From NCBI GenBank assembly GCA_951406725.2, contig OX597819.1:22506001-22570000 (forward strand): a stretch of 64,000 bases of DNA. Reading direction: 5' to 3'. Shown here one piece after another: positions 4,046 to 60,421 of this stretch. Positions within the stretch are counted from its first letter, which is position 1; each line of letters opens with the position of its first letter. Origin of the DNA: Octopus vulgaris (lineage: Eukaryota). The position numbers and the translations under genes are program-made. Below the pieces are notes generated by a model that saw only the letters and a program-made list of their open reading frames with translations, ran no database searches and was not told the origin of the DNA.

Positions 4046-4205
4046 ACTTACGTATACGAAAAGGACAAAGCGGTGAAGAAATATGAATGAATGAATAATG
4101 CGAAAGCGATGAGTATTTATAACTGAATGTAACACCTCCAATACTAATAAACAGCTGGTGACAATATATCTCAGTCTCAAACCTGAATAGGATAATAATG
4201 ACAGT
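4046..4205 (-). promoter_or_regulatory. Paralog D: promoter and non-coding exon 1 of the secreted-peptide gene family
   Basis: Minus-strand TATAAATA at 4114-4121, CAGCTG at 4152-4157 and donor AC|GTAAGT at 4046-4051. Colinear similarity to 41258-41420, 49460-49610 and 54757-54926. No exon 2 found in 1-4045. Confidence 0.65.
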
Positions 4206-4754
4206 TTACAAAATACTTGCTGAGAACTAAAGATATTTTATGGCTCGCAGACAAGTGCAAACAAAGATGTCTTCTACTGCACCTGAAGTTAATAATGTGA
4301 ATTTGTAAAGGGTGTACCGATCGACACGACAGTATAGATCAACACCCGGGAAGATTGATCAAGAGATAGATGGATATACACATATACAACTACGTCAAGT
4401 GTCTGACGACACATGTTTCATGAGCTTTAATATTTTTTTGGCCATTCTTTTTTTTTTAAACTTACATTTTAAAACTTACAAATAACTAATGTCAGACACA
4501 AGGATGCCTCAGCAATTGAAAGGGCATGCTGTGATAGCTGCATTAAAAACACAGGATAGTTTACGTATATATCTCAAACGCAGAAAGTTTCTCCTTATCA
4601 GATGTCACAATATTCACTCCTTTTCTATCAACATCTCACTTTAATTTCTATAATTTACGATCATTTTAAAAATCTGCTTTTCTTCTGTTATCAATCGATA
4701 CTTCATCGCTCATGGAATTTCGATCTTCTGTGAATATATGTCTGTGTGCGTTTG

Positions 4755-4921
4755 TATCTATCTATCTATCTATCTATCTATCTATCTATCTATCTATCTA
4801 TCTATCTATCTATCTATCTATCTATCTATCTATCTATCTATCTATCTATCTATAAATCTATCTATCTATCTATCTATCTATCTATCTATCTATCTATCTA
4901 TCTATCTATCTATCTATCTAT
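4755..4921. repeat. (TATC)n microsatellite
   Basis: Direct observation. Confidence 0.95.
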
Positions 4922-4974
4922 AGTTTTGCCTATACAAAACATGTAACTGGCTAACCCATTTTGATTGCAAGGCA

Positions 4975-6390
4975 AGCGACTTCTAGGGTCTCTCCAAAAT
5001 CCATAAGAATCAAACAATTAAGAATGCATGTAAAGAACTATACAAAATTCCACCAGGCTTCAATTTAGACCAATCGCAGCAGGCACGAGCTGTGAAACAC
5101 AAAATATGCATCTTTTTAGATATATTGCTGAAGCCTATTTCAAAATATATACCAAGTCTTGTAAGGGACGACTTTTACCTGTTAAACCACCTCCCCAATT
5201 CCATAAACAATGACACCATCATTGTAACTTTTGATACAGCAGCCCTCTATACCACAATCCCACACCAATATGGACAAGAGATAATAAATTTCTGGCTTGA
5301 AAAATTCCCTCGTGAAATTCTAGACAGAATAGAAAAGCTTTTGATCACTAAATGATTAAAATATATCATCCATGGCAATATCTGGGACTGCGGTGGCTAC
5401 AAAAGTTGCTCCAACTTACACCAATGTAGTCGTGGCATGCATGAAGGTCCAGATATATGAACAATCTAAATTAATATATGGCTAGAACTTCCACAATTAT
5501 GTACTAGAAAACTGGAAAAGTTACTAAGATGTCTGCCTAATCCTAATGGCAGACATATTTGAACTTATAGATTTCACAAATCTAATCAACTGCGTAATCA
5601 ATAATATTTGTTTCACCATGGAATACAGTAAAACTCAACTACCATTCCTAGATATGCTAATCATCAAAAAATATAAAAGCATAGGAACAGATATTCACTA
5701 CAAACAAACATAATCTAAACAATACTAACAATTCTCCTCATGTCATCGAACCACAGGAAGAATAATATCCCCTATAATCTAACAAGAAGAATCTGCACAA
5801 TTGTTTCAAACGCTGAAAATCGCAATAAAAGATTCCAGGAAATAAAACATGTATAAATTAAGAGAAAATACCCATTAATTTTAATAGACAATGGAATAGA
5901 ACGTTCCAAAAGATAAATATCTAAGAGCTACGAACAACGCTCCAGATATATTCGAAACTCTAGCCTTTATTGCAACACACAATCCAATATTATCCACCAC
6001 AACACCCCACTATTATAACAAGACCCAAGAATAAAACAGGCATTCGAAATACACAAAATAATCAAAAATAAAAGACAATCAATGACCCCACTCCAAATAA
6101 CCCACAAGTGCTAAATTACCTTCCAAAATTTCTACACCAAATGTTTAAAAGTGTGGACGCTCAATTGCGGGACCTGCATCAACTTTACTGAAGAAAGGAC
6201 ATACATATTCAAATCGAGAGAGATTTTCCCGTAAGAAATCAATTTTCATGTTCTTCAAAGAATTTAATATGCGCTATCAAATGTCAAGTATATAATGAAG
6301 ATTACATAGGTCAAACAAAGCTGACTCTAAGAATAAACTGACCATTCACCAACAACAAATATGAAACCGGAGTTCAAGACAGATTCCACT
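4975..6390 (+). mobile_element. Penelope-like retroelement, RT plus GIY-YIG (decayed)
   Basis: RPIAAG, LDILLKP, IVTFDTAALYTTIPH, GTAVATKVAPTY, LPFLDMLI, NNIPYNLTRRICTIVSN and SCSSKNLI.AIKC...YIGQTK, spread across frameshifts. Confidence 0.9.
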
Positions 6391-6659
6391 TGTTAATAAT
6401 TTGCTTTTTATTCACCTAAGTTTGAGCTGTGTGGACAGTACTGTAGAGATTTGTTGCATCAACTTAAGTACCTAATTTAACTGATTCTTAATTATTTCTT
6501 ATACGTACATGCATACATATACATACATATGTATGTGTGTGTGAACATAAATGTATATATATATATATATATATATATATATATATATATATATATATAT
6601 ATAAGAATATATGTATATATATATGTATGTATTATATAATACAGTGTATGTATTATATC

Positions 6660-57530: not shown

Positions 57531-58559
57531 TGCTGTTACTTTTAGAGTTATTCTCACAATTGTCATTATTATTTTTATCGCTTCCCTCATTATTCATATT
57601 ATTACTTCTATAGCAGTACTGTTACCGCTACCCCACTATTCTTGTCATCTACAGTAACATTTCCATTTATTTTGTCCTGCAAATTAGTCTTAGTTTTAGT
57701 TTTATCTTTTTTTTATTATTACCTGTTTTATTCCAGTATACCAAAATACATAGCAACACACACACACACACACACACACACACACACATATATATATATA
57801 TATACATATGCACAAATACATTCGTGTATATACGTGCATGGGTATATTAATACATACGCCTTACAGTACCTATTCACAAAGTAGATTTGGGAGCAATTAA
57901 AAAACATCCACCTTTTATCGACTGGTTCTTCACTTACAGTTCCTCTGATATTGAAACAACATAGAAGCACTTCGAGAGCATTGTTACTTATACATGCTCA
58001 AAATAATCTCCTTCGAAACTCACAAGCACAGACAGAAATAGGCTTCTAAGAGAGAAACTGTTCTATTCATATGCCAACAAGCATGGGACCGCAGTCTCAT
58101 CCGTTGACCCACTGACTGATAATAAAAGCATTCACCAACATGATACTATAGAAAAGGTAGAGGTACTGCAGAAACTGTACTGTTCTGTCTTTAGTCATCC
58201 CACTGATATTGATGTAATGGGTTTGAACAAACTCAATCCTCAACAATATTATCTGGGACATAACTTTTACTGTCTTAGGCATCATAGCAGTAATAAATGA
58301 AGGCAAATACTATTCTGCCATAAGCCATGATTGATTCCCTCGCTAGTGTCCCGAAGGAATGTAGACACCAAGTTGCAGTCCCTCTGGCCAACGTCTGGAG
58401 TAATTCCTTAGACTCAGGCTATATACCAAAACACTACTCATCACAATATGTCATCTTGGTCTTTTAAAAGGGAAACAGGTCTCTCGCAGTCCACTATCAC
58501 CCAATATCACTCATCTCTCATATCATAAATGTGTTTGAAAGGGTAGTGTGATCGAGGAT

Positions 58560-60020
58560 AACTGGTTTACTGGAGACCTAAATCCACTCAGCATAGCTTT
58601 CGCTGCGGCAAGGTCTGCCTAACACTGCTCTTACAGCACTTCGATGATATCCTTAAAGCCTTGGGATCAGTTTCGAAATCTGATGTCGCATACGTTGACT
58701 TCAGCAAAGCGTTCGACAGAGTCAGCCACAATAACCTCTTGTCAAAATTGTCAAATGTTCGGATCCGTAGAAATTGTTACACTGAATTAAGAATTTCCTG
58801 GTGAACAGAACAAATTAGGTTGTGCTCAATGGAAACCACTCAAGCCCTGCCAGTCACTAGTGGTATTCCGCAGGAGATTCGTTCCTGTTTATAATCTGTA
58901 TAAACGACATCCCAAGCGTCATCAAACACAGCAATGTAAAAATACTAGCAGATGACTCCAAGCTCCAGAAAATTATCAGTGGAGAAAGCCGAACTGAACT
59001 CCAGTATGATTTATATGTTGTAAGCCAATGAGGAGTCAAAAACAAAATGCGGTTAAATAAGAGAAAATTTGAACTGATGCATTTTGGAAAGAAGACCACG
59101 CTCAACCAACCATATTCTCTTTCTTCGGGGGAGCCACTCCCACGTCAACAATAACGTTGATTTAGCCGGCAGGACGAGCTTTTGGATCGTCAGAGCTTTC
59201 CGTTTCAGAGAGCAACATGTCATCACTCCTCTTTTTTCTCATCCTCTGCACGGTCACATCCAAAATACTGCTGCCTGCTGTGGTTTTCTCACATAAAACA
59301 TTTCATGAATTGAGACATCCCAGAGAACATTCACTAAAAGAAATTAAGAGCATGACTGATCTTGATAATTGGGACCGCCTTAAATCATTGAAATTTTTTC
59401 TCTCCAGCGCCGACGTAAGTACTACATAATTTGCACAAAGTGGAGAATATAATACCAGCATTGCCCAGATGACCTTAACATTATATTCACAATTCATTCA
59501 AGGCTGGGGCCACGTACCATACGTCGCTTACACAATTCAGGATCACAACACATAAATTAACTGCAGTACAATATACAGTTCAATATTTAAGAGATGAGGA
59601 ATTATGTACATTATTTATATTATATACATTCGATGGATATTTGTCCTCATCTTGTTTGTTGTTAGCACAACGTTTCGGCTGATATACCTTCCGGCTGAAG
59701 AAGACACCTGAAGAAGTCTGGAGGGTATATCAGCCGAAACGTTGCGTTAACAGCAAACAAGATGAGGACAAATATCCGTCGAATATAAATAAAGTAAATA
59801 TTGTAAATAATTTGCAGCACAATATCTTTTCCTCATTGAGCCCTGTTCTATTTAACCCAAACCAAATCAAAGATTCCTTCACCTTCAAACGAACCTTGGA
59901 CAATTTTTTCCAAGGGATACTATACTAGATAAGCCACCTATACTTGGATACATGTGTCAAAAAAACTATCTACTTGAATGAACCATACTACCACACAACT
60001 TGGATTAAAATGACCTAGCT
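58560..60020 (+). mobile_element. CR1/L2-clade LINE RT region (decayed)
   Basis: DVAYVDFSKAFDRVSH, SGIPQ, INDIP, LADDSKL and WDRLKSLK. Confidence 0.85.
59575..59812. mobile_element. Palindromic hammerhead-bearing insertion in the LINE
   Basis: Inverted arms at about 59625-59693 and 59717-59787. ACAC-CTGAAGA..CAGCC-GAAACGTT-GCGT. Flanked by TGCAG(T/C)ACAATAT at 59562-59574 and 59813-59825. Confidence 0.7.
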
Positions 60021-60201
60021 GATCCTATTAAATTAGATATGGCCTGGGTCAATCTTTGACAGAAATATATCGAAGTTATTTAAGTTATGTATATCCAGAG
60101 AATACATACACAGGTAACCAATTGTGTTGTTCGCCTCTTTCTCGAAATTTAACCACCACAGTTATTAGTTCGATCTTTTCCAATTACATTTGTACTTTCA
60201 G

Positions 60202-60280
60202 GTCAGTATGACACGACTATTTCCTTTTTGCTTGTTGGTTTTGACAGCAGTAACAACTTTTGTCGAAGCACATGCAATCA
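60202..60280 (+). CDS. Paralog C exon 2, signal peptide: MTRLFPFCLLVLTAVTTFVEAHAI
   Basis: tgtactttcag| acceptor, ATG at 60208, A|gtaagt phase-1 donor. Downstream exons were not found in the window. Confidence 0.85.
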
Positions 60281-60421
60281 GTAAGTTTCCTATTATATAT
60301 GTAAATACTGAATAATTAAACTTTTGAAAATTTCCTGAAAACTAATTCTTCCATTTTTTAATCAGTCTTTTCTTGTATAATTATGATGCACTTACCGATT
60401 TTGATCACAGACTGCTTTGTG

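Follow-up and report, generated by a model that had tools for sequence, protein, structure and literature searches.

The window analysed here, a stretch of 64,000 nucleotides from Octopus vulgaris, sits within a genuine and undescribed octopus cluster of genes for small cysteine-rich proteins. Codon-model likelihood tests point to positive selection on both exons that encode the cysteine-rich part, and these exons are predicted, from structural models with middling fold scores, to specify a pair of fibronectin type I (FnI)-like modules. We propose, with a probability of about 0.7, that this tandem octopus family uses the FnI-like pair as a binding scaffold for a changing outside target.

The cluster and the genes in the window

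The preliminary description of this DNA reported a block of promoter, exon 1 and start of intron 1 in four copies, and all four are present: TATA-like boxes lie at 4121 (unit D, minus strand), 41330 (A, minus), 49535 (B, plus) and 54850 (C, plus), each 67-71 nucleotides ahead of a GTAAGT donor, and the blocks align over 240-690 nucleotides at 65-73% identity (E 1e-20 to 1e-66). Units A and B are indeed head to head, their TATA boxes being 8205 nucleotides apart. The signal-exon sequence ATGACACGACTATTTC recurs exactly three times, as described, at 35496 (minus), 52283 (plus) and 60208 (plus); allowing up to three mismatches brings the matches to four, where 100 shuffles average 0.64. All three signal exons have 73 coding nucleotides, an AG acceptor and a GTAAGT donor. 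The four blocks do not, however, correspond to four genes: the window contains two whole genes (A, and C, which is completed outside the window) and two fragments (B and D).

Gene A, on the minus strand, begins with a TATA-like box, non-coding exon 1 and donor (41263..41330), followed by exon 2 (35424..35502; ATG at 35496, 73 coding nucleotides), which encodes a signal peptide as judged by inspection and hydropathy. Exon 3 (30342..30479; 138 nucleotides, phase 1 to 1) encodes cysteine module 1, and exon 4 (24479..24626; 148 nucleotides, phase 1 to 2) encodes cysteine module 2. The last exon (15680..15837) has 17 codons, a stop ending at 15783 and an AATAAA at 15692-15687; its 3' end is inferred, and its tail matches that of the O. 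bimaculoides orthologue P0004. The four coding exons, with AG/GT sites, give 137 residues made up of the signal and two exon-coded modules, with ten cysteines, all after the signal, and the product is collinear with O. bimaculoides XP_052824406. A further exon considered near 16617-16668 was dropped, having no match in paralogues and being absent from the orthologue. In one study, two runs of unrecorded type yielded two contigs that stop exactly at the exon 4 donor and have 160 and 163 unmatched nucleotides past it, fitting the length of the last exon; both also extend about 200 nucleotides into the intron upstream of exon 4, and a contig from a third run reads straight through the donor. No RNA run is listed as containing this sequence, and one presumed RNA run, its type guessed, leaves exon 4 without cover; neither observation carries evidential weight.

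Whether C and D continue into cysteine exons had been left for the neighbouring DNA to decide, and the two differ. Gene C (plus strand; TATA-like box, exon 1 and donor at 54850..54921, signal exon at 60202..60280 with its ATG at 60208 and 73 coding nucleotides) is completed 1-14 kb past the end of the window by its two cysteine exons and its last exon, at window-equivalent positions 65060-65194, 71766-71913 and about 77.6 kb. Unit D (minus strand, 4051..4121) is an orphan TATA-like box, non-coding exon 1 and donor without coding exons of its own. Its exon 1 is 86.5% identical over 438 nucleotides to that of the next gene outside the window, which starts 13 kb past D, with no signal or cysteine exon belonging to D before it. 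Unit B, on the plus strand, has a TATA-like box, exon 1 and donor (49535..49605), a signal exon with two glutamates within the hydrophobic stretch (52277..52355; ATG at 52283, 73 coding nucleotides) and a last exon (53210..53300); given that no cysteine exon lies between the latter two, B is a truncated copy. A block upstream of B (48545..49190, no strand assigned) is repeated upstream of C at 53339-53985 with 75% identity over 658 nucleotides, which identifies B and C as a tandem duplication.

A search of the 2.8-Gb genome with the exon-1 block and the signal exon found the former at at least 15 places and the latter at at least 12, every one on contig C6; the dispersed repeat named in the preliminary description as a competing possibility is not what is seen. 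The array is multigene and reaches beyond the window on both sides, as had been predicted. The cluster spans C6:22.15-22.78 Mb and holds 15 units of the ten-cysteine kind (type I), ten with signal and both cysteine exons open and five in fragments, together with four genes of a 12-cysteine sister type (type II); further family genes lie on C6 at 114.9 and 123.3-123.95 Mb. Parts of the array at C6:22.28-22.37 Mb are inverted copies 95-99% identical to other parts, and could include an uncollapsed haplotype. This mixture of complete genes and fragments, with inverted duplicates and gene conversion, agrees with the birth-and-death array envisaged earlier, except that much of it is old and stable: for each of seven O. 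bimaculoides proteins the closest gene in this array is a different one, limiting fast birth and death to part of the array.

Predicted fold and relationships of the family

The product, termed a peptide in the preliminary description, is a two-module protein of about 95 residues rather than a short peptide: 13 of 14 members carry ten cysteines within 92-96 residues. Secretion is predicted for these proteins, judging from the signal peptide by inspection and hydropathy, as are five disulfides in each. A model of the mature part of an orthologue (pLDDT 91.8) has two all-beta modules of about 45 residues, each a hairpin and a three-stranded antiparallel sheet with a tryptophan after the hairpin. 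In Foldseek searches FnI pairs fill the top 14 rows (best E 0.0017, none below 0.001), and in a structural ranking among 48,161 chains they take ranks 1-5 (Z 6.8, rmsd 5.5, 86 residues aligned), a second comparison giving Z 8.0 and rmsd 4.0 A over 83 aligned residues. The sister-type model has top rows of the same FnI kind. When the profiles of the two modules are compared with each other, the probability is 23% (E 0.0009), so that a common origin of the modules rests mostly on the structural model.

Pfam has no fn1 or Fn1_2 (PF00039) match at E up to 1 in nine type I and four type II full-length proteins, none to these models at E up to 10 in 16 exon-4 translations, and none of any kind in single exons. 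VWC (PF00093) reaches one of the nine type I proteins, below the curated threshold (E 0.044, 14.5 bits against a cut-off of 27.6). PDB sequence searches reach E 0.1 and 1.3 at best, which is chance level, and in a language-model atlas every neighbour lies at or below 0.82, VWC2L-like and MIG-18-like FnI clusters at 0.80 being leads only. FnI modules have four cysteines, with C-x-C on the middle strand, and each is encoded by a single exon flanked by phase 1 introns. In the octopus family the module 1 exon has phases 1-1, and that of module 2 has phases 1-2 in type I but 1-1 in type II. The likeness to FnI pairs (PF00039; PDB 2rl0, 3cal, 3ejh) consists in the predicted two-module fold, one exon per module and the best structural matches; unlike them, the octopus proteins have no Pfam match, 13-19% identity and five cysteines per exon with C-x4-C, and the pair forms the entire mature protein instead of one segment in a large mosaic, and is strongly diversified.

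Two other families invite comparison. Beta-microseminoprotein (MSMB/PSP94, PF05825) is likewise small, at about 90-95 residues, with ten cysteines, two beta domains and exons faster than an intron, and the octopus proteins share its secretion by prediction. In the part of PMC3268785 consulted, MSMB and squid Loligo beta-MSP are described as ten-cysteine proteins of reproductive secretions and the squid egg capsule whose exons outpace an intron, with an MSMB cysteine layout of 6+2+2 and a C37-C73 link. The octopus family differs in its two similar modules and its cysteine spacing, PF05825 has no Pfam match in 13 full-length members, and chicken MSMB3 aligns to the model at rank 11 (Z 4.0, rmsd 7.8, 67 aligned), the MSMB fold being made up of a Greek-key N domain and a four-strand C domain; MSMB offers a model of how the octopus proteins might act. 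A genome search for the PSP94 family gave no match anywhere, and its controls likewise gave none. Arthropod SVWC/Vago and scorpion La1 (PF15430) are expanded small secreted VWC/FnI-like proteins of immunity and venom, with a single domain of eight conserved cysteines, in the consulted part of PMC13115929; the octopus proteins have two modules, ten or twelve cysteines and no Pfam match.

The homologues found are unnamed Octopus proteins only, with ten true matches among 1.84 billion representatives. A word-index protein search with exon 4 alone gave no candidate; profile searches did recover homologues. The members are LOC128248056, LOC128248057, LOC128248060, LOC128248175, LOC106872057 and LOC106872088 in O. 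bimaculoides and LOC115212787, LOC118763691 and LOC118763783 in O. sinensis (E 1e-11 to 1e-15 with exon 4 alone, up to 1e-49 at full length), all annotated merely as uncharacterised; none of the Octopus protein matches is an exact copy of gene A. The automatic name of P0016, 'Pleiotrophin/Midkine N-terminal domain', corresponds to no Pfam family at E up to 1, and the long proteins P0012 and P0013, the lowest profile matches, were dropped as repeat artefacts with bacterial-type domains. The seven O. bimaculoides proteins are 62-85% identical to their respective partners here, against a median of 34% between paralogues, and reading frames and all ten cysteines are retained in orthologues of two species. 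Fast-evolving arrays of secreted cysteine-rich proteins are already known, and the octopus family is one for which we found no name, Pfam model or paper: full-text searches with family identifiers and topic searches of titles and abstract openings retrieved none. The searched supplement text of PMC7693380, PMC10142993, PMC10138644, PMC9699675 and PMC9712504, which covers their tables in part, contains no family accession, and the remaining tables may list these genes.

Selection on the module exons

Codon models, run with custom code for 14-16 paralogues over 45-49 codons, the branch lengths being scaled from M0, give the module exons an omega of 2.4-3.4 at about 40-60% of sites. Comparison of M1a with M2a yields 2dl 50.4 for exon 4 (omega 3.15 at 63% of sites) and 26.9 for exon 3 (omega 2.8 at 40%). 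The signal persists under other codon frequencies, when multi-nucleotide changes are allowed (2dl 34.0 and 14.8), and without the fragments or the converted copy; the largest 2dl in 25 null simulations is 4.8. These likelihood tests point to positive selection on both module exons; against this, pairwise counting gives dN/dS of 0.77-0.98, not above 1. The preliminary description proposed setting the dN/dS of signal exons beside that of mature exons; the signal exon has an omega of 1.1 and no clear purifying selection.

Divergence is 0.51-0.55 in exons as against 0.27-0.34 in flanking intron. Four recent duplicate exon pairs differ by 4.7% at replacement and 4.8% at silent sites (5.5 silent differences only) and by 2.0% in introns; as both kinds of site exceed the introns, conversion or a higher mutation rate in exons could contribute to the signal. 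One exon has been swapped by gene conversion, with a clear tract. Along two strands encoded by exon 4, sites of high omega alternate with sites of low omega, and a two-face comparison gives mean omega of 2.5 versus 1.4, for a parity chosen after the sites were seen and fitting poorly on the last strand of module 1. Position-fixed cysteine codons were considered and rejected: minority codons number 2 and 8, where simulation gives 9.4 and 7.6 (P 0.07 and 0.62).

A possible variable binding scaffold and its setting

In the mechanism we propose, fixed cysteines and core tryptophans would hold the scaffold and alternate strand positions would form a binding face, and one variable face per beta-sheet would probably bind an outside target that keeps changing; duplication, inversion and exon-sized gene conversion would generate fresh specificities, with fragments like B and D left over. 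That the family amounts to about 25 secreted binders on one chromosome, built on a bare FnI-like pair with one sheet face rewritten and module exons swapped, and is a new cephalopod venom, mating or immune scaffold missed by annotation, is a proposal to which we give slightly less than even odds.

Much of the same evidence could be read without any arms race, as that of an extracellular family with a structural or adhesive role and relaxed constraint, in which only cysteines matter and conversion and mutation bias mimic selection. Pairwise dN/dS near 1, silent sites exceeding introns in recent duplicates, the conversion tract and the 5 of 15 units in fragments would all fit; yet omega of at most 1 is rejected under four model variants and also minus the fragments and the converted copy, and the alternation of strand positions and the conservation of frames and ten cysteines in orthologues of two species make this reading improbable. 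Even less can be said for the blocks being a dispersed repeat or assembly artefact and not genes. The possible uncollapsed haplotype among the inverted copies at C6:22.28-22.37 Mb is set against copies in the window that are 65-79% identical and confined to a single contig, whose exons stand in order with their frames open and whose orthologues are annotated in two Octopus species; this reading is refuted for A and C and has only the slimmest chance overall.

If the family is a variable binding scaffold, our best bet for its arena, a tentative guess by analogy with beta-microseminoprotein, is a reproductive-tract or egg- or sperm-associated secretion, which we place ahead of both venom and immune defence. 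Octopuses possess venom glands, and the proteins could be posterior salivary gland components that bind prey targets and diversify like toxin multigene families. Conotoxins and snake three-finger toxins combine signal and scaffold exons with tandem birth and death, positive selection and exons that outpace introns, and the octopus array resembles them in its signal exon, small disulfide scaffold, tandem arrangement with dead copies, fast exons and positively selected mature region; most members are also basic (pI above 8 in 12 of 14). Conotoxins, however, typically show a conserved signal exon and fixed cysteine codons, whereas here the former is not clearly conserved (omega about 1) and the latter are not significantly fixed; the fold differs, many orthologues are one-to-one across species, and no named venom protein occurs among the ten true matches of 1.84 billion representatives. 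None of four O. bimaculoides accessions is in the searched part of a salivary-gland proteome table, a weak point as the orthologues are 79-85% identical, and a venom or saliva role appears on the whole rather unlikely. Somewhat less likely again is a role, akin to that of SVWC proteins, as soluble effectors that act in blood cells, skin or gut by binding patterns or microbes. The small, predicted secreted VWC/FnI-like scaffold, cationic members, positive selection and, as a lead only, the atlas neighbours would suit this, as would the bacterial adhesins that bind fibronectin FnI pairs in the matched structures. The two modules with ten or twelve cysteines depart from an eight-cysteine single domain, and the searched parts of ink and skin-mucus proteome tables lack five to six accessions of the family, including two whose mature part is identical to that of genes in this genome; the net charge of -7 to +12 makes a common membrane-lytic action unlikely.

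The scaffold of this family, a predicted stand-alone FnI-like pair, is unusual, and it may prove useful as a small binding protein of natural origin. With gene models and a map of the variable face, the octopus family is open to direct testing, and its positive selection suggests that it probably stands at the front line of an octopus interaction, with mates, prey or microbes.

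Promoter copies and genes in the window

Self-comparison of the window after masking of simple repeats recovers the four copies of the promoter/exon-1 block claimed in the preliminary description, at about 3.9-4.3 (D), 41.0-41.7 (A), 49.2-49.8 (B) and 54.5-55.2 kb (C), with 65-73% identity and, in all four, a TATA-like box 67-71 nt upstream of a GTAAGT donor. The three signal exons described there likewise hold up, a 16-base start motif having three exact matches and each exon 73 coding nt, as does the head-to-head pair of A and B, which are divergently oriented with 8205 nt from TATA box to TATA box. 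In the genome (2.8 Gb), the exon-1 block occurs in at least 15 places and the signal exon in at least 12, all on the contig bearing the window (C6); this confinement excludes a high-copy dispersed repeat.

Gene A (minus strand) comprises a non-coding exon 1 at about 41.3 kb, a signal exon (35502-35424), cysteine exons 3 (30479-30342) and 4 (24626-24479), which are the sole convincing cysteine exons within the window, and a last exon from 15837. With AG/GT at every splice site, it has an open frame of 137 residues with ten cysteines past the signal (C-x2-C-x5-C-x14-C-x4-C-x16-C-x6-C-x14-C-x4-C-x17-C), and is collinear, tail included, with O. bimaculoides XP_052824406. When exon 4 was compared with four sequencing runs, two had a contig that stops precisely at the donor, one a read-through contig and one no cover. 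The two donor-ending contigs (one study; run type not recorded) carry 160 and 163 other letters beyond exon 4, a length with which the AATAAA at nt 146-151 of the last exon agrees; both also reach about 200 nt into the intron upstream of exon 4. Their support for splicing of gene A is good but partial, the letters past the donor being known by number alone.

Downstream cysteine exons, expected for both C and D, are present for C and absent for D. Gene C is whole, its two cysteine exons and last exon lying 1, 8 and 13.5 kb past the window end. Unit D is exon 1 alone, and the next family element, 13 kb further, is exon 1 of another gene, for which D could be a second promoter. Unit B, which starts with an exon 1, lacks any cysteine exon between its signal exon, whose hydrophobic stretch contains two glutamates, and its last exon.

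Long open or broken frames at 39303-40394 and 8854-9537 (minus), 10250-11101 (plus) and 58060-59600, located in intron 1 of A, the A-D interval and intron 1 of C, look by eye like retroelement and DNA-transposon remnants. There are also long inverted repeats (hairpin or MITE-like) at 20950-21208, 27638-27922, 36516-36961, 47642-47799, 59600-59812 and 60422-61242, one of them perfect across 158 nt.

The array and its relatives

Profile and BLAST maps of C6:22.14-22.80 Mb (read entire) and of 200 kb out of 123.27-123.96 Mb reveal 15 ten-cysteine (type I) units at C6:22.148-22.780 Mb. Ten have the signal and both cysteine exons ordered and open, the last exon not being found for one and exon 1 for another; the remaining five are fragments: units B and D, an isolated exon 4, a copy that lacks exons 1-2 and in which one cysteine has been lost, and another that lacks exons 2-3. 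The part read of 123.3-123.95 Mb holds three further type I genes along with an isolated exon 1. A twelve-cysteine sister type (type II) contributes 13 module-1 exons (4 at 22.60-22.71, 7 at 123.62-123.81 and 2 at 114.9 Mb), two of which matched at E 0.1-0.3 only.

An inverted block (C6:22277000-22369500), which shares 95-99% identity with 22.14-22.16 and 22.40-22.46 Mb, is possibly either a young segmental duplication or an uncollapsed haplotype. In one pair of these copies, at the exon 3 in C6:22309018-22309158, informative sites favour a third gene by 31 to 9 inside the exon and the true duplicate by 80 to 16 outside; given this switch, exon-sized gene conversion has passed from a paralogue to a recent duplicate, over a tract from about +10 to +200 of the exon start.

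In one member the signal exon is 72 nt long (C6:22492652-22492723) and the next-exon acceptor has moved to phase 0 (22483701-22483839), the phase of intron 2 thus being changed while the frame is preserved. The reading frame of the homologous last exon (window 15837-15783 and 53210-53300, for example) seems to vary between members, some of which seem to leave it entirely untranslated; in three members a stop directly follows the tenth cysteine. The type II gene at C6:22704636-22734300 combines a single signal exon and a single module-1 exon with two downstream cassettes, each of a module-2 exon plus a last exon (22.716/22.721 and 22.729/22.734 Mb), which may be alternative 3' halves or the product of a partial duplication. 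A tRNA-like sequence lies just within intron 2 of one member (C6 ~22387450).

An exon-4 profile (16 translations) gave 12 matches among 1.84 billion representatives, 10 of them true (E < 1e-10) and two dismissed as repeat artefacts. All ten are unnamed Octopus proteins, from O. bimaculoides or O. sinensis, and further searches added six family members from these two species. No relative was found outside Octopus in this library, whose squid and cuttlefish share is uncertain, and restriction to Octopus is thus the limit of what the searches found. Two array genes are identical to O. sinensis proteins across the mature part, which places the genome within that group of species. Among 23 mature sequences placed in a tree, five of the seven from O. 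bimaculoides each form a starred pair with a single array gene, and each of the seven has a different closest array gene, at identities (without a baseline for ordinary orthologues) of 62% for A, 68% for C and 65-85% for the others; paralogues share 24-95% (median 34%). The majority of duplications are thus older than the species split, and recent turnover lies in one clade. Three annotated forms of O. bimaculoides LOC106872057 have the signal and module 2 alone, by either exon skipping or loss.

Selection and predicted fold

Divergence of the exons exceeds that of 80 nt of flanking intron (0.55 vs 0.27 for exon 4, 0.51 vs 0.34 for exon 3, 0.44 vs 0.34 for the signal exon), and pairwise counting gives dN/dS of 0.98, 0.77 and 0.87, respectively. 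Likelihood site models in purpose-written code reject omega (dN/dS in codon models) <= 1 for exon 4 (p 1e-11 from 16 sequences, with 63% of sites having omega 3.15) and exon 3 (p 1.5e-6 from 14 sequences, with 40% of sites having omega 2.8). M7/M8 and M8a/M8 tests are concordant for both, and the signal persists under MG94 frequencies, when double and triple changes are allowed (p 4e-8 for exon 4, 6e-4 for exon 3), and after dropping fragments or the converted copy; in 25 null simulations, twice the log-likelihood difference was at most 4.8. In the comparison of signal and mature exons proposed in the preliminary description, omega <= 1 is rejected for the mature exons, and omega is 1.1 (p 0.16) for the signal exon (first 18 codons, 12 sequences; two excluded, their aligned first codon not being ATG). 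Counting against positive selection, four recent duplicate exon pairs differ equally at replacement sites (4.7%) and silent sites (4.8%), compared with 2.0% in introns. High and low omega alternate over the last two strands in exon 4 and the middle strand in exon 3, from which we infer one variable sheet face, the parity having been picked post hoc.

The family proteins are predicted to be secreted. AlphaFold2 models the mature part of gene A's orthologue (28 rows; pLDDT 91.8) as two modules, each a hairpin plus three strands. With this model, pairs of fibronectin type I (FnI) modules occupy the first 14 Foldseek ranks (best E 0.0017), FnI-containing chains take ranks 1-5 of an independent wide structure search (best Z 6.8), and a second comparison with FnI chains reaches Z 8.0; the type II model is alike in structure comparison. 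The scores for these models are middling, yet FnI is the top family every time. No Pfam family lies above its cut-off for the family proteins, which are predicted to fold like an FnI pair but are not classified as FnI.

Functional implications

The best working analogy is beta-microseminoprotein, which, according to PMC3268785, has ten cysteines, two beta domains, an intron more conserved than its exons and a squid member in egg capsules. The type I octopus proteins share the ten cysteines, the two beta domains (predicted) and exons diverging beyond the intron. Membership is rejected, profile and cysteine spacing both failing. SVWC proteins, as PMC13115929 describes them, have a single domain with eight cysteines. 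Loci of this kind are familiar; as far as we found, neither the family nor its bare FnI-like pair has been described, no publication located by us naming its members or treating it, which subscription papers and further supplements may do.

The arena of this evolution may be reproduction, at a probability of about 0.35. Venom is a slightly weaker candidate and immunity a more doubtful one; searched by term, the family accessions are absent from what was covered of the proteome tables for salivary gland, ink and mucus, which is a weak negative. That there is no arms race at all seems improbable. Beyond the genes, their array and the selection on them, all of which the analysis demonstrates, we propose that the family would furnish a scaffold, held by disulfides, that binds an outside target that keeps changing.
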